Below the pieces are notes generated by a model. That model made no database searches. It saw only the letters and a list, made by a program, of their open reading frames with translations, and was not told the origin of the DNA. A stretch of 64,000 bases of DNA from positions 1,120,001 through 1,184,000 of the forward strand of contig CAVSGM010000002.1 of NCBI GenBank assembly GCA_963727485.1. Direction: 5' to 3'. The DNA comes from an uncultured delta proteobacterium (GTDB lineage Bacteria; Myxococcota; Myxococcia; SLRQ01). A program made the position numbers and the translations under genes. Shown here piece by piece: positions 36,511 through 51,416 of this stretch. Each line of letters starts with the position of its first letter. Within the stretch, counting starts at the first letter, position 1.

Positions 36511-36741
36511 CTAGCAGAGGTCGGCGTCGCCGTCGCAGTAGGGCGGCGTCCGGGTCTGCTGGCAGCGGCAGAGGCGGACCACCGCGAAGCCCTCGATCTC
36601 GAAGGGCCGGCAGCGCTCCGGGCCGGGGCAACCCGCCGGGTCGCAGAAGGGTCGGCGCCGCGAGCCCCCGCAGCCGCACCAGCGGTAGGCGCCCCCGGCG
36701 AGCGGCAGGGGCCGGCAGGGGCGAGGGTCCTCGTTGGCCAT
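36511..36741 (-). CDS. CDGSH-like Fe-S protein with atypical ligands
   Basis: WCGCGGSRRRPFCD and LCRCQQTRTPPYCDG motifs; the terminal His is absent in both. Confidence 0.75.
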   Translation of the reverse strand: MANEDPRPCRPLPLAGGAYRWCGCGGSRRRPFCDPAGCPGPERCRPFEIEGFAVVRLCRCQQTRTPPYCDGDADLC

Positions 36742-36819: not shown

Positions 36820-38868
36820 CTACACCGCTCGGGTGCGCAGGAGCTCGGCGAGCCAGCGGATCCCCCGGCCGAGGTAGCGCCGGTAGGTGCTGAAGGCCAT
36901 GCCCACCGCCTCCGCCGCCGCCTCCTGGGTGGGCGCGGGCTCGAGGTAGGTGGCGCGCAGCGCATCGTAGGCCTTCCGGCGGCGCGGGGACTCGGCGAGG
37001 GTCTCGGCGGCGGCGACGAGCTCGTGGCGGAGGATCTCCACCCGGGTGGCCCAGGTGGCGCCGGTCCCGGCCCGGTGCCGGATCAGGGCGGTGTCGAGGA
37101 GGGGGTTGTGGCGGAGCTGGTCCGGGGCGGTGTAGTCCTTGAGGGCCCGGCGCACCGCCTGCTCGAAGGCCTCGGGACCGAGGTCGACCACCGGGGGCCC
37201 CTCGGCCTCCAGGCCCTCGTCGCTCCCGGCCTCCATGAAGCAGAGGAGCCGGTCGAGGATCCCCTCGCTCCCCCGGCGCCCGAAGATCGTGGGCCCCTCG
37301 CCGTCCGCCGGCACCACCTCCTCGAACCCCAGGGCCCGGAGGAGCCCGGCGAAGGGCCCCGGCTCCTGGAACGCGAGGAAGGTCCCCGACGGCGACTCCA
37401 TCGCCCGGAACCGGCGGGCGGCGGCGACGAAGAGCCGGGCCTGGAGGGCACCGGGGCGCTGGTGGTGGTCCGAGTCCATCCAGCTGCGCAGCACCACCAC
37501 CGGGCCGGTGGCGTCGGCGAAGGGACGCAGGTCGAGGAGGTCGCGGATCGTCGGATCCCAGGTGGCGGACGCCAGGGCCTCGGCGGTGGCGAACTCCGGG
37601 AAGAGCAGGTAGCCCCGGGGCAGCCCCTGGACGTCCCGGAAGACCGTGAACGCCTGGGGCCATTCGGCGAGCCACCGCTCGATGTGCTCGGCGGCGGCGG
37701 CGCCCTCGTGGGCCCGGACCATGGTCGTCAGGTGCAGGGCGTCGCCGGCCTTCAGGGGCGTGGCCAGGACGTCCTGGTCGGGATCCCAGACGAAGCCGAG
37801 GCCCGGGAGGGGATCCCGCCGCCGGAGGTAGAGGGCGTTGAGGAGGAGCTGCTCCTCGCCCACGCCCCAGCTCCGGCGGTCGCGCAGGCGCCCCAGGCAG
37901 TAGGCGAGGCCCTGGTCCACCAGGTCCCGGTGGAGGCTGGGGTTGCGCCAGCGCAGGTCCTCCTCGAGGGCCTGGCGGTAGGGCCGGGTGAGCCGCAGCC
38001 CCATGCGCCCCGGGCGGGCGAAGCCCTGGTGGGCGAGCCACCGGTGGATCTCGTGGGGGTCATCGACCTCGAGCATCGCCGCGAGGAGGTCCTCGGTGGT
38101 GCGGCTGAGGAGGGCGGCGGCGTAGAGGGCCCGGCGGTGATGCCTCGTCGGGGCCTGGTCGGCGAGGGTCCCGGCGAGGGCGTGGACCAGCTCGTGGACC
38201 GAGCACTCGCGCTCGCAGCAGGTCACCGCCTCGGTGCAGAAGGTGGCGGCGAGGGAGTGGACCAGGGGCACGCCCCCGGCGCGCTCGGCGATGGCCGGCT
38301 GGCGGAAGTGGGGGACCTGGAGCTGGCTGAGGTTGGTGAGGCTCTCCTCCTGGGACAGGGGCGAGAGCCGGAGGGAGCGGTGGAGCCCCCGCCACGCCGG
38401 GTCCGTCTCCCAGGCCGCGGGGAGGGCGTCGCGGCTGGCCACCAGGATCAGCCAGTCGGCGGGCACCGCCCCCAGGACCTCGACCCAGGTCGAGGCGGCG
38501 TCCTCGGTGAGGCTCCGGGTCCCGTCGAGGATGAGGACCTGCCGCGCCACCCCGGCGCCGGCCTCCACCGCCACCAGCTCGCGGACCCGGCGGGGCAGGT
38601 CGTCGACCGCGTCCGCCTCGACCCAGTGGGCGGGCAGCCCGGCGTCCTCGGCGAGGTAGGCGGCCTCCCGGAGGAGGGCGGTCTTCCCGATCCCCGCGGG
38701 CCCCACCACCGAGAGCAGGTGGAAGGGCCACCTCGGCGCCTCGAGGACGGTGCGCAGGAAGTCGACCTCCGCCCGTCGGCCCACGAAGGCGCGGCGACGG
38801 TTGCGGCGGAGCAGATTGGCGATGACCAGCGTCTGGGGTGCGTGCACGGCTTGGGGGTTCCTGCCCAT
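36820..38868 (-). CDS. AAA/STAND-like ATPase with C-terminal HTH (putative regulator)
   Basis: AFVGRRAE, Walker A GPAGIGKT, VLILDG, and C-terminal PTQEAAAEAVGMAFSTYRRYL HTH. Start is approximate. Confidence 0.8.
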   Translation of the reverse strand: MGRNPQAVHAPQTLVIANLLRRNRRRAFVGRRAEVDFLRTVLEAPRWPFHLLSVVGPAGIGKTALLREAAYLAEDAGLPAHWVEADAVDDLPRRVRELVAVEAGAGVARQVLILDGTRSLTEDAASTWVEVLGAVPADWLILVASRDALPAAWETDPAWRGLHRSLRLSPLSQEESLTNLSQLQVPHFRQPAIAERAGGVPLVHSLAATFCTEAVTCCERECSVHELVHALAGTLADQAPTRHHRRALYAAALLSRTTEDLLAAMLEVDDPHEIHRWLAHQGFARPGRMGLRLTRPYRQALEEDLRWRNPSLHRDLVDQGLAYCLGRLRDRRSWGVGEEQLLLNALYLRRRDPLPGLGFVWDPDQDVLATPLKAGDALHLTTMVRAHEGAAAAEHIERWLAEWPQAFTVFRDVQGLPRGYLLFPEFATAEALASATWDPTIRDLLDLRPFADATGPVVVLRSWMDSDHHQRPGALQARLFVAAARRFRAMESPSGTFLAFQEPGPFAGLLRALGFEEVVPADGEGPTIFGRRGSEGILDRLLCFMEAGSDEGLEAEGPPVVDLGPEAFEQAVRRALKDYTAPDQLRHNPLLDTALIRHRAGTGATWATRVEILRHELVAAAETLAESPRRRKAYDALRATYLEPAPTQEAAAEAVGMAFSTYRRYLGRGIRWLAELLRTRAV

Positions 38869-39039
38869 CGGTTGTCGGGTCGCTCCCGGCGCGCACGGTC
38901 GGGTCCCCGCCCCGGGCCGGCGACGCCATGGGCTGACGCCTCGGACCGGGCCACCTCCATGCCCAGGTCCAGGTTGCCAAAGGCCCCGGCCAGGGAACAG
39001 ACCAGGAACTGCCCACACGCTACACCCCAGGGTCGCTCC

Positions 39040-40824
39040 CTAGTCATCGCCCTCGCCGGGCTCCACGTAGCGTTCCCAGAGGGCGTCGGCGACCAGGCCG
39101 GTGGCGACGGCCAGGCGCCGCCGGAAGGTGCGTCCGGAGATCCCCAGGGTATCGGCGAGGACCCGCTGGGGGAGCTCGGGGTCGCGCCAGAGGCGCCGGA
39201 GCGTGGCCATGGCCTCGGGGTCGGTCCCGGCGGCCTCGACATCGGCGATGCCCGAGAGGAGCCGCTCCACCAGGGCCCCCATTCGGTCCCCCTCCCCCAC
39301 CGGGGGCATGAAGTGCCGGCAGGTGAGCAGGCGGCTGCGACCCAGGACCTCGGGGGTGGGCTGGCGGAGGGTGGCGTCCACGGACTGGCGGAAGCGCTCC
39401 CGGGGCAGGTGGCGCTCGAGCTCGATCCGCCCGGTCTCCACCCGGGGATCGCGATAGAGGGCCACCACCAGGCGCGACTCGCCGTCGAGGGTGTACTCGG
39501 TGAGGGGCGCGGAGCCGGCCCCGAGGGCCACCGCCAGGGTCCAGGCCTCCCCGGGGCGCACCGACGCCAGCACCACCCGGATCCGGGGATCGGCCACCCA
39601 CCGGGACACCACCTCCGCCAGGAGCGCGCGCTCGACGGCGGTGGGTGCGGGCCCAGGCTCGGCGCCGAGGATGCCCCGGAGCAGGAGGGCCCGATCCCGG
39701 GGCCCGAGGCGAAGCTGGTGGCGCAGGGCCCAGTGGGCGGCCGAGAGCCCGTCGTCGGGGCCCTGGGCGTCGTCGGCGGCGAGGGTGGGGTCGAGGTCAC
39801 CGAGGAACATGAACCCCAGGAGCGGCCCGCCGCCGGGGGTCCGGCACAGGTGGATCGCCTCGGGCCGGCGCTCGAGCCACCACCGGGCCACGGTGCTCCG
39901 GTCCCGGCCGCCGCCGGTCTCGCGGACCAGATCGAGGAGGCCTACGCCCTCCACCGGCCGAAGGGGGCGCACCTGGAGGTGGTCGGTGGCCAGCCGTGCG
40001 GGATCGGCGAACACCGGATGTCGGGCGAGGCGCAGGTGGAGGAGCCCCTCGGCCCAGAGGGCCCGGTCCCGAGGCCCGGCGTGGCGGATCCGCCGGCGGT
40101 GGAAGGCCATGAGCCGGACCCGCAGGCGGGCGGTCTCCGGGGCCTGCGCCGCCTCGGCCTGGAGCTGGCGCCGGGTGTCGCGGGTCGCCACCAGGCCCAC
40201 CGCCGCCTGCTCGATCCCCGGCAGGCCCCCGAGCCACTCGAAGAGCCGGGGCCCGGCGACCCGATCGACGACCGCGGCCAGGAGGTCCTCGGTGAGCCGC
40301 GGCGCCAGGGCCGCGACGATGAGGGCCGCCCGGTGCGCCGGGGTGGGCGCCAGGCGAAGGGACGGAGGCCCGCCCACCGCGACCACCCGGGCCAGGGCGC
40401 GCCACCCCGGGTCGGCCCACCAGGCGTCCTCCACCGTCTCCAGGGCGACGACCGTCACCGCCCCGGCGGGGAGGCGCGGGAGCCAGGCCCGGCGCAGCCA
40501 CCGGTTGGCGGCGAGATCGCCGCCGGTGGCGTCGACCAGGACCAGCGGCTGGCGCCGGCCGGCGGCGGCGGCCACCAGGAACGGCTCCGGGGCCGCGACG
40601 AGGATGCCCAGGTCGAGGATCGGTGCCGGGAGGCCCCGCTCGGGGAACTCCCGGGCGAGGGCGAGGAGCGCCTGCCGGAGCGCGGGCACGTGGGCCCCGG
40701 TGACCAGGAGGACGCGGGGCAAGGCGGCGGCGTCGGTGAGGGCGGCGGCGACCGCCTCGACGAGGACACCCTGGCCTTCGGTCGGGGCCTCGGCGCCGCC
40801 CAGCTCGAGCCCTTGCTCGACCAC
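39040..40824 (-). CDS. Degenerate paralog of the adjacent ATPase-HTH regulator (no Walker A)
   Basis: Shares DP(G/A)WR, TEDLLAA and the C-terminal HTH (PQRVLADTLGISGRTFRRRL) with 36820-38868; no GxxGxGK(T/S). Start is approximate. Confidence 0.65.
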   Translation of the reverse strand: MVEQGLELGGAEAPTEGQGVLVEAVAAALTDAAALPRVLLVTGAHVPALRQALLALAREFPERGLPAPILDLGILVAAPEPFLVAAAAGRRQPLVLVDATGGDLAANRWLRRAWLPRLPAGAVTVVALETVEDAWWADPGWRALARVVAVGGPPSLRLAPTPAHRAALIVAALAPRLTEDLLAAVVDRVAGPRLFEWLGGLPGIEQAAVGLVATRDTRRQLQAEAAQAPETARLRVRLMAFHRRRIRHAGPRDRALWAEGLLHLRLARHPVFADPARLATDHLQVRPLRPVEGVGLLDLVRETGGGRDRSTVARWWLERRPEAIHLCRTPGGGPLLGFMFLGDLDPTLAADDAQGPDDGLSAAHWALRHQLRLGPRDRALLLRGILGAEPGPAPTAVERALLAEVVSRWVADPRIRVVLASVRPGEAWTLAVALGAGSAPLTEYTLDGESRLVVALYRDPRVETGRIELERHLPRERFRQSVDATLRQPTPEVLGRSRLLTCRHFMPPVGEGDRMGALVERLLSGIADVEAAGTDPEAMATLRRLWRDPELPQRVLADTLGISGRTFRRRLAVATGLVADALWERYVEPGEGDD

Positions 40825-40905: not shown

Positions 40906-42012
40906 CTAGAGGAAGTCCCCCTCGACCAGGGTCGGGTCGACGTCGGCGCCGGGCTCGGGCCGCGCCGGCGCCTCGCGGGCGATGCGCTCGTGGAGGGTCC
41001 GCAGCCGCGCCACGCAGGCCTCGAGGAGCACCGGCTCCCCGTCGGGATCGAGCCAGCCGTCGAGCTCGTCGTCGAGGCCCCGGAGCTCGGCGAGGCCGGC
41101 GAGGACGGGGTCCGGAGCCCACCGCTCCCCGGCGTCGGCGGCGGCCTCGAGGGCCGCGAGGGCCTCGGCGAGGCGCTCGCCGTCGTGGGCCCGGAGCTCG
41201 GCGCGGTGGTTCACCTGGCGCAGGAGCTGGGCGAAGGCCTCGACGTCCTGCCACAGGCGCATCCCCGCCCGGAGGACCCCTTGGGCCTCCGGGTCCTGGC
41301 GCAGCCACTCGAGGATGCGCTCCTGGAGGGAGCGGAACTGGATGCGATCGGCCACCCGCAGGTCCGGGTAGACCTCCCGGCCGGTGAGCTTGGCGATCGC
41401 GGTGGCCGTGAGACGCAGGCGCCGGATCACCGTCTCCTCGGTGGCCGGGCCGTCGCGGACCACGTCCCCGGCGAACGCGGCGTAGGTGCGCCGGGTCGCC
41501 AGCGATCCCATGAGGCCGGTCTGGTAGTAGCTGTTGTCCGAGTCGAGGCCCTCGAGCTCCGCCACCGCGTGCTCGATGGCCGAGAGGGACTTGAGGATCT
41601 CCCGGCAGGCGCTGCCGGCCTCGTCGATGATCTCCCACCGGGCGTCGTCGCCGCGGAGGGCCTCGAGGGCCTGGAGGCGGCCCCGGAGGCCGAGGCGGGC
41701 GACGAAGGCGAGGTCGGCGATGTCGTGGGCCTCGGGGCCGGCCATGCGCCGGTCCACCTCGGAGCACAGCTTGCCCGGGGCGAGCTCGGTGGGCCGCTCG
41801 CCGTCGGCCACCTGCTCGTAGTGGTCCACGGCGATGTCGAGGATCTCCAGGGACACCTGGAGGAGGCTGCGCACCTGGGCCAGGAGGCGGCCGCGATCGG
41901 CCCCGGGCTCCTCGTAGCGGGCCAGGGGCAGGGCCTGGACCTGCTTGATGGCCCCGATGAGGAACCGGTGGAACTCCGGCGGGGTGACGGTGGTGGGCTC
42001 GGCGGCGGTCAT
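40906..42012 (-). CDS. Hypothetical all-helical protein
   Basis: 368 aa ORF with GC3-biased codons, in the same operon direction; no recognisable motif. Confidence 0.7.
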   Translation of the reverse strand: MTAAEPTTVTPPEFHRFLIGAIKQVQALPLARYEEPGADRGRLLAQVRSLLQVSLEILDIAVDHYEQVADGERPTELAPGKLCSEVDRRMAGPEAHDIADLAFVARLGLRGRLQALEALRGDDARWEIIDEAGSACREILKSLSAIEHAVAELEGLDSDNSYYQTGLMGSLATRRTYAAFAGDVVRDGPATEETVIRRLRLTATAIAKLTGREVYPDLRVADRIQFRSLQERILEWLRQDPEAQGVLRAGMRLWQDVEAFAQLLRQVNHRAELRAHDGERLAEALAALEAAADAGERWAPDPVLAGLAELRGLDDELDGWLDPDGEPVLLEACVARLRTLHERIAREAPARPEPGADVDPTLVEGDFL

Positions 42013-42070
42013 GGGACATCCCCCGGCGGGCCGCGCCTGCCCGGCGCGACCCGCCCGTGGCGTCCGCCTG

Positions 42071-42475
42071 CTAGAGGGCGGCCTCGATGGGACCCTGGGA
42101 GACCCGGGCCTTGGCGAGGACCATCCCGATGTTGGCGCTCTTGCGGCAGACGTAGACGATGGCGTGGTCGGGGTACTTCTTCCCCCGCATGAACACGTGG
42201 AGGAGGTTGTCGCTGTTGACGATGATCTCGGTGAAGTAGTGGTGCCCGTCGTCGGCGATGCCGCGGGTCTTCTTGAACAGCTTCTCGATGGCGGTGACGT
42301 TGGTGCCCTGGAAGAGGTCGGCGGTGGCGGCCGACACCAGGTCGAGGACCTCGGAGGGGTGGGAGTCCACGGTCTTCACCGCCAGCAGCATGCCGGTGGA
42401 CATGTCGACGTAGCCCCCCGCGACGCACTCGGGGATGCCGGCAACCTGCTCGTTCAGGGTCTTCTCAAGCGACAT
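42071..42475 (-). CDS. Roadblock/LC7-like small protein
   Basis: IPECVAGGYVDMSTGMLLA...EIIV...LHVF...ANIGMVL pattern seen in Roadblock/MglB-like proteins; strong codon bias. Confidence 0.7.
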   Translation of the reverse strand: MSLEKTLNEQVAGIPECVAGGYVDMSTGMLLAVKTVDSHPSEVLDLVSAATADLFQGTNVTAIEKLFKKTRGIADDGHHYFTEIIVNSDNLLHVFMRGKKYPDHAIVYVCRKSANIGMVLAKARVSQGPIEAAL

Positions 42476-42518
42476 TCGTTGTTCCTCTCGATGATGCGGG
42501 CCCCGCCCGCCGTGGGTA

Positions 42519-43842
42519 CTAGGGACCGGCGGTCGATCCCCAGGGGTGAAGGCGTCGGTCCACGGCGGAGCCGAACGCCTGAAGGAAGCCGACCTGGGCC
42601 GGGGACTGCACCCAACGCGGCTGGATGAGACGGATGGCCTCGAGGACCTCGAGGGGCTCGCCGCCGGCGAGGATCTCCTGGGCGGCGAGCATGGTGCCGG
42701 TGCGGCCGAGGCCGGCGCGGCAGTGGTAGGCGACGACCTCTCCGGCGACGAGGCGCGCGGCCACGGACTCGCAGAAGGCCAGGGCCGCGTCGAGGTCCGG
42801 GGCGGCCATGTCGTCGATGGGGAAGAACAGCCCCTGCATCCCCCGGTCGGTGAGGGCCGTGATCGGCACCGTGGCCGTCTCCTCGAGGGTGACCAAGGTG
42901 GTGATCCCCACCTCCCGGAGGGCGTCGAGGTCGTGGTCCAGCTCGCCGACGACCCCGGGGCGCGGGGTCCCCGCGAGGACCCCCCGGCGCACCCAGTGGA
43001 AGCCCCGGGGGCCCCGGCGCCGGGCCATGGACACCACCGCCTCCGGGGGGATGGGCGTGGGGTCGGGGACCTCGGGGGCCAGGTGGGCCCTGGGGGTCCC
43101 GGGCGCCGGCAGGGCGCAGGAGCCGGTGCGCACGAAGGTCTTCGCCGCCTCGGTGCGCGGGCTGCCGAAGAAGGCCTCCGAGTCCGCGGTCTCGACGATC
43201 CGGCCCCCGGCGAGGAGGGCCACCCGGCCGCCCAGGGCCTTGGCGGTCTGCTGGTTGTGGCTGACCACCAGCACCGGACGGCGGGTCGCCTCGTCCCGGA
43301 GGAGGGCCGCCAGGGCGTCGCGGCTGGGCTCGTCGAGGCCCGAGCAGGGCTCGTCCACGCAGAGGAGGCCCGCGCCCGCCAGGGCGGTGCGCAGGATCGC
43401 CACCTGGCGCTGGAGCAGCATGGGCAGGCCCACGACCTCCTCGTCGAGGCGGGGCAGGAGCCGGACCAGACCCCGGGACGAGAGGATGCGGCTGACGCGC
43501 TGGCGCTGGGCGGCGGGGGTGAGGGCGGCCCGGTCGGCCATCCCCAGCACCAGGTTCTCGGCGACGGTGGCCATGACCAGCTCGGCCTTCTGGGCCACCA
43601 GGTCCGGCCGGGGACCGGTGCCCAGGGGCCGGCCGCGGTACTCGGCCTGGCCCCAGGTGCGCATCGCCGGCTGGGCGTCGTTGGCGCCGGCGAGGGTGCG
43701 CACCAGGGTCGACTTGCCGACCCCGCCCGGGCCCATGAGCACGGTGATCCCCGGGCCCCGGATACTCGAGATCCACCTCCGCGAGGATCACCCGGTCGCC
43801 GAAGGCCACCCCGAAGCCGGTGAGGGTGAGCACCGGGCTCAT
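42519..43842 (-). CDS. ABC-type ATPase fused to a protein-tyrosine/dual-specificity phosphatase (frameshift near 43764)
   Basis: Walker A GPGGVGKS, Walker B LCVDEP and H-loop VSHN; C-terminal PIDDMAAP and HCRAGLGRTG (CX5R). The N-terminus MSPVLTLTGFGVAFGDRVIL joins after removal of one T. Confidence 0.85.
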
Positions 43843-44711
43843 GCGGGCCCTCCCTGGCCCTCGAGGAGGGTCTCTGCCTGGGCGCCGGCGTGGCGGGTGA
43901 GGCAGGCGGTGTCGCCGGCGACGCGGCACAGCCAGGTCCCGCCGTCGTGGGCGAGGACCATGGTCCGCGGCTCGATGCCCTGGACCACCAGGCTCGGGGG
44001 CCGCGCCAGGGGCCCGACGCTCCGGGCGATGCGGGCGATCTCCGAGAGCTCCATCCCCTCGAACCCCTGGAAGCGCAGGGGCAGCGGGGTCGCCTGGGCG
44101 TCCCGGTCCACCCAGACCAGCATCGCCACCTCGGCGAGGTCCCGGACCCGCTCGTAGTGAGCGACCGCCGGGCCCGCCGGGGCGGGCAGGGCGTGGGTGA
44201 CGACGCGCCGGTAGAGGGCCTCCGGAGAGAAGGCGAGGCCCACCCCCCGGGCCTTCTCCAAGGGCTTGAAGGGCATCACCAGGCGGCGCCCCAGGGTACG
44301 GCCGGCGAGCTCCAGGAGCTGGCGGCAGAGCACCTGCTCCAGGGCGGCGCGCACCACCTCCAGGTGGCGGCCGCCGGCGTCGGCGAGGACCGCCTCCAGG
44401 GGGCGGCCCCCGGTACGGGCGGCGTAGACCGCCGTCCGGAGGACGTCGAGGGTCGGCGGGCTCCACCGGCGCAGGAGGTCGTGGACCGCCCCGTCGTCGC
44501 CGGCGCCCCGGACCAGGTGGAGGCGCCCGTCCTGGACCACCATCGAGGCCAGGGGGGTGCCGCTCTCGGCGTCACAGACCTGGAGCTCCCCGCTCTCGGT
44601 GGCCCGACCGGCGACGGCGAGGAGGGCGAGCACCCGGCCGACCCGCCGGCGGGCGGCGGGGACGCCTTCCACCTCGGCATCGTCAATCTCATGGGGTTCG
44701 CGGGGATCCAT
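43839..44711 (-). CDS. Hypothetical protein (N-terminus resembles DUF4388/PatA-N-like domain)
   Basis: ATESGELQV...VVQDGRLHLV pattern; stop overlaps the start of the ABC-phosphatase gene. Confidence 0.6.
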   Translation of the reverse strand: MDPREPHEIDDAEVEGVPAARRRVGRVLALLAVAGRATESGELQVCDAESGTPLASMVVQDGRLHLVRGAGDDGAVHDLLRRWSPPTLDVLRTAVYAARTGGRPLEAVLADAGGRHLEVVRAALEQVLCRQLLELAGRTLGRRLVMPFKPLEKARGVGLAFSPEALYRRVVTHALPAPAGPAVAHYERVRDLAEVAMLVWVDRDAQATPLPLRFQGFEGMELSEIARIARSVGPLARPPSLVVQGIEPRTMVLAHDGGTWLCRVAGDTACLTRHAGAQAETLLEGQGGPA

Positions 44712-44874: not shown

Positions 44875-44964
44875 ATGCGCACCCCCCTGATGGAGACCGT
44901 CGCCCTGCTGCTCCTCACCGTCGCCGGCGTGGCCGTGGCCGCCTCGGTCCTCCTGGTCCCATGA
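44875..44964 (+). CDS. Possible small single-TM membrane peptide
   Basis: MRTPLMETVALLLLTVAGVAVAASVLLVP; its stop overlaps the globin start (ATGA). Confidence 0.4.
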   Translation: MRTPLMETVALLLLTVAGVAVAASVLLVP

Positions 44965-45542
44965 GCCGCCGGGTGAGACGCCGGGACGGGCCCCTGCGCG
45001 CGAGGCCGGAGGTGTGGCGGTCGCTGGACGACGGGGCGCGTCTGCGCGCGGGCCTCGAGCACTTCTACGCCCGGGTCTTCGAGGATCCGGCGCTGGCGCC
45101 CTTCTTCACCGAGACCGGGGTGACCCGCCGCCACGTGGTGGACAAGCAGTTCAACTTCCTCCGGGACCTGCTCACCGGCGACGGGAGCTACTTCGGCAAC
45201 CGCCCCCGCAACGCCCACCACTGGATGATCATCTCCGAGGCCCTCTTCGACCACCGGGAGGCCCTCCTCCAGGACTCCCTGGCCGCCTGTGGGGTGCCGC
45301 CCCTGGCCCGGGACGCCATCCGGGAGATCGACGAGGTCTTCCGCAAGCAGATCGTCAAGGATCGGCCCATCCCCCGGCGCATGGGCGGGATCACCTTCCC
45401 CCTCGACGGCGTGGAGGAGATGGAGATGCCGCTGGGGACGGTCTGCGACGCCTGCGGAGATGCGGTCGAGGCCGGGGACCGGGTCCGCTACCACGTCCGC
45501 ACCGGGCGCACCTGGTGCCTCGGCTGCGCCCCCGCCCCCTAG
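44961..45542 (+). CDS. Group I truncated hemoglobin with C-terminal Cys4 zinc ribbon
   Basis: FYARVFEDPALAPFF, KQFNFL, YFGNRPRNAHH and ISEALFD globin motifs; then CDAC...WCLGC. Confidence 0.82.
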   Translation: MSRRVRRRDGPLRARPEVWRSLDDGARLRAGLEHFYARVFEDPALAPFFTETGVTRRHVVDKQFNFLRDLLTGDGSYFGNRPRNAHHWMIISEALFDHREALLQDSLAACGVPPLARDAIREIDEVFRKQIVKDRPIPRRMGGITFPLDGVEEMEMPLGTVCDACGDAVEAGDRVRYHVRTGRTWCLGCAPAP

Positions 45543-45550
45543 GAGGCTCC

Positions 45551-45787
45551 ATGGCCCGCATCGGCCCCATCCGCATCGAGCTCGACCCCGGCCGCTACCA
45601 CTGGTGCGCCTGCGGCACCTGCCCCGACGCGCCCCTCTCGGACGGCGCCTGCGCCGGCGACCGGCCCGCCGTCCCCTTCGAGCTCACCGAGCCCACGCGA
45701 ATCCGACTCTGCCGCTGCCGCCACACCTCGAACCCTCCCTACTGCGATGGCAGCCACTACCAGGTGGCGGAGGATGAAGCGGGATAG
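45551..45787 (+). CDS. CDGSH iron-sulfur protein
   Basis: AGGAGG RBS; WCACG...SDGAC and LCRCRHTSNPPYCDGSH. Confidence 0.85.
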   Translation: MARIGPIRIELDPGRYHWCACGTCPDAPLSDGACAGDRPAVPFELTEPTRIRLCRCRHTSNPPYCDGSHYQVAEDEAG

Positions 45788-46157
45788 CTCGGAGCAGCTC
45801 GTCGACTGCGAAGCGGGGCGGCGGATGGGGTGCGCCACCTTCTGCTGCCGGCTCATCGTCCGCTATGACCCCGGGGAGGTGGTGCGTTCCCCGGAGGGGG
45901 TGCGCAAGCACTGCGTGGACAAGGACCCGGACACGGGCCTCTGCGTGAACCTCGACGCAGCGACCGGGCGCTGCCGCATCTGGGAGCGGCGGCCTTCGGT
46001 GTGCCGGGCCTACGACTGCAACGCCGACCCCAGCCTCCAGGTGGTGCTCCGGGAGGGGTTCCGGTCGCTCGTGGCGCTGGCGTTGTCGCCGACGGTGGTG
46101 CCCCGGGATCGGTGGATCCCGGTGCCCACCCTGGACGGCGACGACGACCCTTGCTAG
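45774..46157 (+). CDS. YkgJ-family cysteine-cluster protein
   Basis: C...CATFCC, CVNLD...CRIWERRPSVCRAYDC motif. Confidence 0.85.
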   Translation: MKRDSSEQLVDCEAGRRMGCATFCCRLIVRYDPGEVVRSPEGVRKHCVDKDPDTGLCVNLDAATGRCRIWERRPSVCRAYDCNADPSLQVVLREGFRSLVALALSPTVVPRDRWIPVPTLDGDDDPC

Positions 46158-48107
46158 GCGGCCTCGGTCTTCTTGGCGCCGGAACCGGCGGCCTTGCTCG
46201 CCGCGGGGGCCTTGGCCGGGGCCTCCACCGGCTCGCTGGTGTTCTTCTCGGCGAGCTCGGCGAGGATCCGGTCGCCGGTGTGGACGATCTGGTCCCAGTT
46301 GTAGCGGATCCGCGGCTCGCACCGCTCCATCCACCGCGCGGCGAGGGCCCGGCGCTCGGGGTGCTTCTTCGCCTGCTCGACCAGGATCTCGGCGGCCTTC
46401 ACGTCGAAGAGGATCTTGGTGAGCTTCTCGGCGTGGAGCAGCCCGTAGGAGAAGTCGCGCTTGGGGTCCCAGTCCTTGAGGAAGGTGTCCACGAACTTGG
46501 GCAGGGGCCCGGCCATGGCCACCGACCACTTGTCCTTGGCGATCTTGAGGAGCAGGTGCTGCATCGCCGACCAGGCCAGGGTCTCGAGGCCGAAGTACTT
46601 GCGCTCGAGCTCGTCGCCAGCCCGCAGGGCGCCGACCTTGGCGGCGGCGAGCTTGCGCAGGAAGCGCTGGGGCTTCTTGATGGCGCCGGTGAGGTTGTCC
46701 TTGAGGACCATCAGCGACTGGATCTGGCTGGTGCCCTCGTAGACCGGCATCACCAGGGCGTCCCGGAGCAGCTTCTCCGCCGGGTAGTCCTGCATGTAGC
46801 CGTTGCCGCCGAGGATCTGCATCGCCATCCGGCTCATGGCCACCGCCTGCTCGGCGCCCTGGTACTTGAGCAGGGGGGTGAGCTCCCGGGCCCGGCGGCG
46901 GTGGCGGCTGACCTGCTTGCGGATCTCGGTGGCGCCGCCGGCCTGGCTGGGGATGCGCTGGAGGTACTCGAGGCGGGTGGCCATCTCCTCGTGGAACGCC
47001 GCCTCGACGGCGACCGCGCGCATGGCCTTGATGGTGACGTCCATCTCGTCGAGGTAGTCGTAGATCATCTCGTGGCGGGCGATGGGCTTGCCCATGGACC
47101 AGCGCTCCTCGGCGTAGTCCTTGGCCACCCGGTAGGCGGCCTCGCAGGTGCCGATGGCCTCGAAGCCCACGCCGATGCGGGCGTTGTTCATCAGGAGGAG
47201 CATCAGGTGGAAGCCGTCGCCCTCCTTGCCCACCAGCTCGCCCACCGAGTCCTCGAACTGGAGCGAGCAGGTCGGTGAACCGTGGTGCCCGATCTTCTCC
47301 TCGACCCGGTCGACGTAGAAGTTCTGGACCGTCTCGCCGTCCTTCTCCAGGGTCATGGGGACCATGAACAGGCTGATGGCGGAGAGGTCCTCCTTGTCCT
47401 CGGTCTTGGCCAGCACGAAGTGGTACTTCCCGTGGCCCGAGGTGATGAAGATCTTGTTGCCGGTGATGCGCCAGGTGCCGTCGTCGGCCTTGACCGCCTT
47501 GGTGCGCAGGGCCGCCAGGTCGGAGCCCGCCCCCGGCTCGGTGAGATCCATGGAGCCCCAGGTCTTGCCCTCGAGGATCTCGGCGATCTCCTTCTCCCAG
47601 CGGGTCGAGGTGATCTGCCCGTTCTCGTCGAAGACCGTGGAGCCCTCGCGCAGGGAGTACTGGAGCATGGTGGTGGCGATGCCCACGTGGAAGCCGAAGT
47701 GGGTCATCACCGAGGCGTCGGCGCGGCTGACCACCTCGCACAGCAGGAAGTAGAGGAGCATCGGGGCGTTCATCCCGCCGAGCTCCCGGGGCAGGGTCAG
47801 TCCCGTGGACGCCCATCTCGGTGAGCTGCTGGAAGATGGCGTCGAAGGCCGGCGCCGTCTTCACCACCCCGTCCTTCAGGGTGGTGCCCGTGTGGTCGAT
47901 CTCCGCGGACTTGGGGGCCACCTCCTCGGCGACGAAGCCCCCGAGGAGCTCGAGGATGTCCTTGTAGGTCTCCAGGGCCTCCTGCCAGGTCTTCGGCGCG
48001 TCGACGGCGGTGTAGTGCCGCTCCACGGTGTCGACGAGGGTGGACCAGTCGACGACGTGGTCCACGTAGAACTGGAGGTCTTCGTTGTCGCGGAAGAAGT
48101 TGGCCAT
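46154..48107 (-). CDS. Acyl-CoA dehydrogenase (frameshift near 47800)
   Basis: MANFFRDNEDL N-terminus, MDLTEPGAGSD, GNKIFITSG, QILGGNGY and VYEGTSQIQ; the two frames join after removal of one base (VHG/LTLPRELGG). Confidence 0.9.
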
Positions 48108-49973: not shown

Positions 49974-50131
49974 GGGCCGAATACCGCCACCTCCGGCGCC
50001 CGGTGGCAACCCTCGCGGCGGCCCGCGGGTCCGGCCCGCGGCGGCGCGAGACCCGGAGGCGCCGGCCCACAGATCCTTCCGGCGCCTCGTGCGTCACAGG
50101 CAGGCGAACCCGCCGCTCGAAGGAGCCCGCC

Positions 50132-51416
50132 ATGATCAAGACCGCCGCCCTCCTCGCCACCGCCGCCACCCTCTCCATCGCCGCCCTGGTGATGGGGGCC
50201 GCCACCCCGCCGAAGGCCGCCATCGCCCACAGCGACGCTCCGGCGGCGCGCCTGCCCGGGAACAGGTCGGACACGGCCATCACCTTCCCGATCCCCCCGG
50301 TGCCCCCCCCTGACACCCCGGACAAGGCGATGAAGCCGCCCATCCACGTCCACCACGCGCGCCGCCCGCGCATCGACATGGTCTTCGCCCTGGACACCAC
50401 CGGCTCCATGGGCGGGCTCCTCGAGGGCGCCAAGCAGAAGATTCTGGCACATCGTGAACAGCGTGGCCCAGGGCCAGCCGGCGCCCATCGTCCGGGTGGG
50501 CCTGGTCGCCTACCGCGACCACGGCGACGCCTACGTCACCCGGGTCACGCCGCTGTCCCGGGACATGGACTCGGTCTACGCCAGCCTCCACGCCCTCAAC
50601 GCCGCCGGCGGCGGGGACACCCCCGAGGACGTGGACCAGGCCCTCTACGACGCCGTCCACAAGATGAAGTGGGCCGGCCCCCAGTCGAACACCCTGCGCG
50701 TGCTCTTCCTGGTCGGCGACGCCCCGCCCCACACCAACTACCAGGACGTCCCCAGCTACCAGGCCACCCTCCGCGCCGCCGCGAGCCGGGGCATCGTGGT
50801 CAACGCCATCCGCTGCGGCAGCTACACCGCCACCGGCACGGTGTGGAACCGCATCGCCCGCCTGGGCCACGGCAGGTACCTGTCCATCGACCAGAACGGC
50901 GGCATGGTCGCCACCGCCACCCCCTACGACGGTCGCCTCGCCGCCCTCTCCGGCGCCCTCGACGACACCTACGTGCCCACCGGCAGCGCCGCCCGCCGCG
51001 CCGACGCCCACCGCGCCCTCCACACCTTCGCCGGGATGGCCGCCGAGGGCGGGGGCGGGGTCGCCGCCGACCGCGCCGCCTACCGCGCCCGGGCCCCCGA
51101 GGCCGCGCCGCCCCCGGTGGCCAAGGCCGACGTGGTCACCGCCTTCGCCAAGGACAAGAAGGGCGCCGAGGAGACCCTGGGCCACGCCGACCTCCTCCCG
51201 GCGAAGATGCGGAAGATGTCGCTCGCCGAGCGCAAGGCCTACGTGGCGCAGCAGGCCGAGAAGCGCGAGGCCGTCCGCAAGAAGATCGTCGAGATCTCCA
51301 AGGAGCGCAGCAACTGGCTCGCCCACCACGCCCCCAAGACCCAGGGCAGCTTCGACGCCGAGGTGGTGAAGGTGGTCCGCCAGCAGGCCGCCAAGAAGGC
51401 CCACGTCAAGTACTGA
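50132..51416 (+). CDS. Secreted von Willebrand factor A domain protein (frameshift near 50443)
   Basis: Signal peptide, MIDAS-like LDTTGSM, GLVAYRD, GGGDTPE and LVGDAPPH; the frames join as KIWHIVN after removal of one T. Confidence 0.88.

Follow-up and report, generated by a model that had tools for sequence, protein, structure and literature searches.

Roadblock proteins are regulators of small GTPases, and the idea that they regulate NTPases in general was reportedly put forward by Koonin and Aravind in 2000. According to parts of a 2014 survey (PMC4316618), many Roadblock proteins have no GTPase partner, and these orphans were called uncharacterised. For the polarity switch that MglA and MglB form in Myxococcus xanthus and Thermus, the published description (PMC3199381) reports that the MglB dimer supplies no catalytic residue and instead repositions the residues of MglA itself. 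Here, we analyzed a gene cluster in a 64,000-nucleotide stretch (hereafter, the window) of contig CAVSGM010000002.1 from an uncultured delta proteobacterium, whose genome comprises 5.55 Mb in 14 contigs with 73% GC. Four co-directional, tightly spaced genes on the minus strand (positions 40906-44711), as described in the initial annotation of this DNA, are indeed present and are called g1 to g4 in the order of transcription. The core is the fusion of an ABC ATPase with a phosphatase (g2) and a Roadblock-like protein (g3). The boundary drawn after four genes was too narrow, as the divergently transcribed globin, CDGSH and CxxCxxCC genes (44961-46157) are, judging by gene order in relatives, part of the same conserved neighbourhood. 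The module is real and conserved, and it is best read as Roadblock-NTPase signalling that does without a GTPase and has a haemoglobin partner of its own.

The conserved core was defined from relatives of g3. A search with this protein in genome_contigs gave 441 relatives among 589 candidate stretches, and the best 79 loci (65-75% identical), which are the closest relatives rather than a random sample, were studied. They span Myxococcota, Pseudomonadota, Planctomycetota and Bradymonadales. Occurrences in these loci were counted with detection profiles derived from the same loci, and 301 genomes of the phylum served as an unbiased sample for co-occurrence. The ABC domain was found in 66 and the phosphatase in 69 of the 79 loci; several of the g2 misses coincide with contig ends, and six loci (L011, L028, L030, L035, L047 and L075) lack g2 despite some flank. 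Among the 301 genomes g3 is patchy (16 genomes, 10 with close matches), and the phosphatase adjoins it in nine of the ten genomes with a close match, the tenth being cut by a contig end. The expectation that the pair would be co-located in other genomes was thus borne out, and by these gene orders g2-g3 co-location is far above chance. Distances of g2 and g3 are correlated (Spearman 0.69, 24 loci). Much lower frequencies were observed for g1 (27/79), g4 (14/79) and the CxxCxxCC gene (8/79), and all four genes g1-g4 occur jointly in only 6/79 loci, so the four genes are not the fixed system that had been proposed; on these counts, the conserved core is two genes, the g2 fusion and g3, and g1 and g4 are accessory. 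In the nearest relative (L002, labelled Myxococcota by the tree tool; a genome of the same phylum, G011, carries an identical locus), all seven genes are present and rearranged. At least 1122 homologues of g2 exist, and the core, which occurs in Myxococcota, Pseudomonadota and Planctomycetota, currently carries the annotation 'hypothetical' or 'ABC transporter'. The suggestion that the system is undescribed still stands, since no description of the g2 fusion, the g2-g3 pair or the globin link was found in the searched literature, classification reviews of rhodanese-phosphatases and ABC ATPases aside.

Among catalogued systems, the closest is the group 3 MglA/MglB system of beta- and gamma-Proteobacteria (Wuichet and Sogaard-Andersen 2014; parts of PMC4316618), inside whose operons the g2-g3 core lies in 11 of the 79 loci. 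These 11 operons contain a group 3-like MglA, mostly together with a REC-wHTH protein and/or a canonical MglB; small GTPases occur in 16/79 loci in all, and group 3 MglA is found in none of the 35 loci having g1 or g4. The words 'phosphatase' and 'globin' do not occur in passages of the group 3 description and three of its four supplements (PMC4316618). In contrast to that system, the cluster in the window includes no MglA GTPase, MglB or REC-wHTH gene, and the genome's own mglB-mglA pair is located on another contig. With the MglA-MglB switch (PMC3199381), the cluster shares Roadblock-fold regulators beside a P-loop NTPase; however, the NTPase here takes the form of an ABC domain with an attached phosphatase, and g3 is below the detection level of the Pfam model Robl_LC7. 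Mgl systems of groups 1 and 5 are known to have PATAN neighbours (parts of PMC4316618), and the C-terminal domain of g1 is closest in shape to MglB. The actinobacterial conservons (CvnABCD; parts of PMC4316618) are likewise compact operons in which a Roadblock protein is accompanied by an NTPase and by an enzyme related to phosphorylation, but Pfam detects neither the histidine-kinase-like CvnA nor the DUF742 protein CvnC nor the GTPase CvnD in the window cluster, which has a phosphatase instead of a kinase.

A further conserved neighbour is the globin gene (44961-45542, plus strand; 193 amino acids). It matches the Pfam family Bac_globin, and matches 1-19 of the 20 Protein Data Bank (PDB) matches are truncated haemoglobins (best E 2e-6), the best being of group I. 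Conserved Phe-Tyr, Lys-Gln-Phe and Ala-His residues in the alignment correspond to the distal Tyr/Gln and the proximal His. The window globin is thus, by sequence, a group I (N-type) truncated haemoglobin, a predicted binder of haem and of oxygen (O2) or nitric oxide (NO), and it ends in a C-terminal CxxC...CxxC finger, each Cys of which is kept in 56-58 of 58 globin sequences (the row of L021 is a misaligned fragment). The globin was found at 150 bits or more in 23 of the 79 g3 loci (24 with the L021 fragment). Whereas the window protein stands alone, 15 of these 23 are fusions behind a reductase, in the order 2Fe-2S, FAD, NAD, globin and Cys finger. A reciprocal search that used only the window globin yielded 463 candidates and, from these, 39 metagenome loci; g3 was present in 20 of them, the phosphatase in 13 and the reductase fusion in 27; among the globin-anchored loci of at least 6 kb, g3 was found in 13/16. 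In the phylum sample the globin occurs in seven of the 301 genomes, this one included, and always within 3 kb of g3 (7/7). On a quick tree of g2, globin-bearing loci (30/76) are scattered throughout, and all five members of the starred clade that includes the window have both globin and g4. The globin and g2 distances are also correlated (0.47; 24 of 30 loci after removal of near-copies), a value reached by none of 500 permutations. These neighbourhoods indicate that the globin is a dedicated partner of the module.

Other redox proteins accompany the globin. Directly behind it lie a CDGSH iron-sulfur protein (45551-45787, plus strand; 78 amino acids, Pfam zf-CDGSH), an occasional accessory whose gene adjoins the globin in L002, L003, L116, L132, L135 and L169, and a CxxCxxCC Cys-cluster protein (45774-46157, plus strand; 127 amino acids, PF03692), an accessory with 45% identity to a protein that a gammaproteobacterial locus encodes between its g3 and reductase-globin genes. 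Other neighbours connected with gas or redox include DsrC and a VOC-DUF2621 protein and, sometimes in loci without this globin, a Crp/FNR-family regulator or a protoglobin-GGDEF-EAL protein with a PAS chemoreceptor (a single event, represented by three near-identical loci); FNR, CRP or NsrR boxes are suggestive in a few loci but show no enrichment. Group I haemoglobins and flavohaemoglobin NO dioxygenases, as treated in parts of PMC3820574 and PMC4720485, share with this protein the group I globin sequence and an FNR-superfamily reductase. Flavohaemoglobins, however, consist of an N-terminal three-over-three globin followed by the FAD/NAD reductase, whereas in the fusions seen here the reductase comes first, the globin is two-over-two with a Cys finger and the gene is tied to a signalling operon; the NCBIfam flavohaemoprotein model scores 75 vs 432 bits. 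No description of the reductase-globin-Cys finger layout tied to a signalling operon was found in the searched literature.

The enzyme of the core is g2 (42519-43842, minus strand; 440 amino acids if an apparently extra base at 43764 is discounted), in which a PstB-like ABC nucleotide-binding domain without signature motif is followed by a Pro-rich linker and a CX5R phosphatase. Matches to the Pfam ABC_tran and dual-specificity phosphatase (DSP)-type models confirm the fusion noted in the initial annotation, although its frame is split in the assembly. In ABC dimers, the nucleotide is bound by cis residues, and the residues of the signature motif and the D-loop are supplied in trans. The Walker A GKS, the Q-loop Gln, the Walker B Asp-Glu and the switch His are kept in all 120 homologues examined; the signature region reads L[P/S/T]L[A/G]xQR, with SGG in 0/120, and the D-loop Asp is kept in 24/120. 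Based on this alignment, the ABC domain keeps the cis half of nucleotide binding and has lost the half supplied in trans. Tandem ABC domains occur in eight loci, and Walker A is dead in the second of the two domains. Both profiles and the sequences of solved structures point to PstB as the nearest ABC family: it is the best NCBIfam match of three out of three proteins, all below the cut-off (74-120 vs 343 bits), and a pstSCAB-like operon of this genome encodes the ATPase that is the best paralogue of the domain. Unlike the phosphate-import ATPase PstB, g2 has no signature motif and no permease and is fused to a phosphatase. As for the phosphatase domain, the loop His-Cys-x-Ala-Gly-x-Gly-Arg-Thr-Gly, the general-acid Asp and the Gln-loop Ser/Gln are invariant or nearly so in the 120 homologues, and its closest solved relatives are PDB 25xa, archaeal protein tyrosine phosphatases, DUSP23, Cdc14 and PRL. 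Its catalytic residues are intact in the alignment, and it is predicted to be of the dual-specificity type, so the label 'tyrosine' given earlier is without support as a substrate class. Compared with CX5R phosphatases of the DUSP23/SsoPTP/Cdc14/PRL type, which are its best solved relatives, the g2 domain would be regulated through the N-terminal ABC domain. Giant fusions of 1170-1960 amino acids also exist (L009, L010, L020, L023, L038 and L039), with the order PATAN-Roadblock domain, unassigned region, active-type ABC, pseudo-ABC and phosphatase.

Two proteins of the cluster have features of Roadblock proteins. The very conserved core protein g3 (42071-42475, minus strand; 134 amino acids) had been called Roadblock/LC7-like; none of 61 family members matches Robl_LC7 (PF03259) and four weakly match the related MAPKK1_Int model, so the label finds no backing in Pfam, but it agrees with the match of the g3 profile to canonical MglB genes lying nearby (79%, E 1.6e-5, 75 columns) and with the UniRef names of its homologues, which are Roadblock. 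The only match of g3 among PDB sequences is ribosomal S5, which looks spurious. The accessory protein g1 (43839-44711, minus strand; 290 amino acids) was described as DUF4388/PatA-N-like. It has no match to PF14332 (DUF4388) itself, yet nine of 29 family members do (best E 5.8e-6) and there is an Atlas lead (0.89), which keeps the assignment of a PATAN/DUF4388-like N-terminal domain plausible. A C-terminal domain (residues ~172-288) can now be added: in a model with a pLDDT of 90, its best structural match is M. xanthus MglB (6hjm; Z 9.4, root-mean-square deviation 3.6, 106 residues aligned), the top 15 structural rows are nearly all Roadblock proteins, and the Foldseek matches are likewise Roadblock. 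The C-terminal third of g1 is, in this model, a Roadblock fold, and one relative joins PATAN to a g3-like domain in a single protein.

We tentatively propose that the cluster is a cytoplasmic gas- or redox-controlled phosphatase switch made up of the ATPase-phosphatase, its Roadblock-like partner and the globin. The parts of this proposal differ in strength. A signalling module with no role in transport is very probable, and in agreement with the initial annotation g1-g4 have no membrane-spanning hydropathy peak and no conserved permease lies nearby. A functional tie to O2, NO or redox state is probable, and the use of the globin as the input, in the order of events given below, is conceivable and somewhat less than an even bet. 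In this proposal, an O2 or NO cue would be turned into dephosphorylation without a kinase receptor or a small GTPase. At the input, the globin would be kept ferrous by the fused reductase or, in the window, by the CDGSH and CxxCxxCC proteins, and O2 or NO binding would alter its state and be relayed via the Cys-finger tail. Dimers of g3 together with the Roadblock domain of g1 may then be to the ABC domain what MglB is to MglA: they would move catalytic residues that the enzyme already possesses into position, which would account for LSGGQ having become dispensable. At the output, gating of the phosphatase by the nucleotide state of its ABC domain would control the dephosphorylation of a target. 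Different lineages may use different outputs on the same core: Pseudomonadota have group 3 MglA and a REC-wHTH protein, Myxococcota have PATAN and g4, and c-di-GMP enzymes and chemoreceptors are found in some cases. The full sequence, in which the ABC ATPase replaces the small GTPase, a Roadblock dimer activates the ATPase and a reductase-fed globin sets the switch by O2 or NO, is speculative and rather unlikely as a whole. A complex prediction for residues 1-428 of g2 from L068 with two copies of g3 gave scores of 0.00, 0.49 and 0.00, with controls not folded.

Several results weigh against a gas-controlled switch of this kind. The profiles used for counting were built from the same loci, so independent evidence comes from the single-protein searches alone, and the correlations of globin with g2 and of g2 with g3 distances can stem from shared descent. 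Within the fetched flank 56 of the 79 g3 loci show no globin, which means that it is dispensable or distant there, and three of the 16 long globin loci are without g3. The Roadblock label of g3 comes from a profile match and database names. FNR-like boxes are not enriched upstream (1/85 windows under strict criteria; shuffle mean 0.18), and the neighbourhood holds no conserved substrate gene or cognate kinase. Moreover, according to sections of PMC3820574, NO dioxygenases are typically built in this way, with a group I haemoglobin joined to an FNR-type reductase, and the globin may for this reason be a co-regulated effector and not a sensor.

The last point leads to the main rival explanation, which is somewhat less probable than the switch: the globin-reductase would be an NO dioxygenase or O2 scavenger and an output of the locus, linked to it by co-regulation and not by direct relay, and the ABC-phosphatase with g3 would respond to the ensuing fall in ATP, or to some other stress cue, with a parallel adjustment of motility or c-di-GMP. 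It would account for the reductase fusions in 15/23 and 27/39 globin loci, for the divergent transcription of the window globin and for the Phe-Tyr and Gln conserved as in group I NO dioxygenases; in addition, such globins are known to receive their electrons from FNR-type reductases (parts of PMC3820574), and group N globins have been assigned to NO/O2 chemistry or O2 transport (parts of PMC4720485). A stand-alone detoxification enzyme, however, need not adjoin one signalling gene, yet all seven copies in the phylum sample do, and the invariant Cys-finger tail falls outside the matched solved group I globins. The ancestry of the ABC domain allows a different input, in which it would read ATP or couple to the Pst system as a sensor of phosphate or energy status, with the phosphatase acting on a small molecule or polyphosphate and g4 serving as a PhoU- or CHAD-like basic helical binder. 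PstB as the nearest family, the paralogue in the pstSCAB-like operon, the invariant Arg/Asp residues of g4, its position beside a lone ABC domain in some Myxococcaceae and the location of L015 among phoB/phoR genes all fit such a sensor. It is nevertheless improbable, as pst, phoU and ppk do not recur among the neighbour families and the globin linkage is left unexplained.

A role in biological conflict or RNA repair, with the phosphatase acting on nucleic-acid ends and the ABC domain sensing infection, has in its favour that the phosphatase best matches Pfam models whose names refer to polymorphic toxins and an RNA-repair protein, that the distribution is patchy and that a 5.5-kb block is >99% identical across three genera of Comamonadaceae. 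The PADLOC anti-phage models gave no match across the components except for short generic stretches of ABC sequence, nucleases and ligases are not among the recurring neighbours, and an identity of 65-75% for g3 across phyla is unlike fast-evolving defence genes; such a cassette is therefore quite improbable. The initial annotation had also suggested that the module feeds two ATPase-HTH regulators downstream, which are co-directional and begin 81 bp past g4. The regulators occur in 0/79 loci, the first one was found in just one of the 301 genomes (this one), and a weak terminator-like hairpin, near chance level, lies in between, so this link was rejected as very improbable. Finally, importer-type ancestry and the retained Walker B Glu and switch His would suit an ABC domain that powers a transporter with its permease encoded elsewhere. 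Against this, the signature is lost in 120/120 homologues, and open reading frames (ORFs) with at least four hydrophobic segments lie near g2 in only 10 of 66 loci and belong to unrelated families save three near-identical loci. By hydropathy, no multi-pass membrane gene recurs near g2 in the 66 loci, so the permease linkage named at the outset as a refuting observation was not encountered, and a transporter role was rejected as extremely improbable.

With a signature-less ABC domain tied to g3, whether a Roadblock protein can control a non-GTPase becomes testable in vitro on a small scale. Truncated haemoglobins are mostly read as NO scavengers; the tie to the globin provides a candidate signal for the module and a possible signalling role for these proteins. 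If the exchange of GTPase for ABC ATPase is true, it would represent a new class of bacterial gas sensing ending in a phosphatase and, with respect to the searched literature, the first sensory role of a group I haemoglobin of this layout, and it would put directly to the test whether Roadblock proteins also regulate NTPases beyond small GTPases.

With regard to the assembly, the stop of g1 overlaps the start of g2 (ATGA), with 43 bp between g2 and g3 and 58 bp between g3 and g4. A +1 frameshift breaks g2 in the assembled sequence: its first ~30 codons, which match the N-termini of homologues, are in another frame. A 406-nucleotide contig from an independent run (X1; covering 43488-43894 at a depth of ~3, with one further difference) lacks base 43764, and base 47800, which breaks a neighbouring acyl-CoA dehydrogenase-like gene (46154-48107, minus strand), is missing from two runs. 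Because both frameshift bases are absent elsewhere, the one in g2 is likely an assembly insertion; the true product is probably the protein of 440 amino acids, with the low depth and the single contig for 43764 limiting this estimate. That g2 is a genuine pseudogene was rejected. A vWA-like gene (50003-51416, plus strand) also appears split near 50400, and together with the frameshift at 47800 it points to spurious indels in the assembly. No sigma-70 promoter was found at the locus. A hydrophobic ORF of 29 amino acids (44875-44964, plus strand), whose stop overlaps the globin start, is of doubtful membership, and no ORF resembling it was found upstream of the other globins checked.

The accessory gene g4 (40906-42012, minus strand; 368 amino acids), seen in Myxococcota, encodes a member of a large family (1182 representatives) with no name and with invariant Arg/Asp residues. 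The earlier description of this protein as helical agrees with its model, which is all-helical (pLDDT 91.5). It has no Atlas match, no solved relative by sequence and no Foldseek match at E 0.001. The best structural matches (VIA Z 12.6) are generic four-helix bundles in lists that cover residues 3-157 and barely the C-terminal half, and among these bundle-dominated matches PhoU and CHAD do not appear. In some Myxococcaceae, g4 sits with a lone ABC domain of the g2 type. A distant paralogue of g4 of ~380-395 amino acids (such as in L110, L111, L128 and L129) is present in about one copy in many genomes of the phylum, with any match in 126/301 (a tally that includes G196) and in 80 of the 115 genomes of one large family; Pfam gave no match for it, and module genes are absent at the five loci inspected (copies of the Myxococcaceae type).

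A number of variants were observed among the loci. In a split form (L115, genome G245), g4 and g3 occur with separate ABC and phosphatase genes and a globin, and two PAS-HD-GYP-PATAN genes and a VOC gene tie this copy of the module to cyclic di-GMP (c-di-GMP) turnover. One subtype (L019, L032, L055, L060 and L072) contains a GTPase fused to a long C-terminal part, some with a metallophosphoesterase fusion and often with a second, divergent g3. On a megaplasmid of Ralstonia solanacearum (AP024102.1; L177), an operon of the group 3 type with GTPase, g2, g3 and MglB and without globin lies upstream of a response regulator annotated hrpG_3. Relatives of g3 were also detected amid tandem dynamin-family genes, without g2 on a Ruegeria plasmid (L178) and with a phosphatase and a reductase-globin in L073; neighbourhoods of g3 with dynamin-family genes and small GTPases are as expected for an NTPase adaptor. 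The 5.5-kb block of L048, L049 and L051, from three genera of Comamonadaceae, consists of a protoglobin-GGDEF-EAL gene, a PAS chemoreceptor, g2 and g3, with up to three FNR-like boxes at its start, and its near-identity suggests recent transfer. Back in the window, the two downstream regulators (36820-40824, minus strand) are paralogous proteins of 594 and 732 amino acids with 27% identity; the first has no Walker A match in Pfam and the second matches AAA_16. Between the last of them and a radical-SAM gene lies a second small CDGSH-like ORF (36529-36705, minus strand), recognized only by our own profile, at 35 bits.

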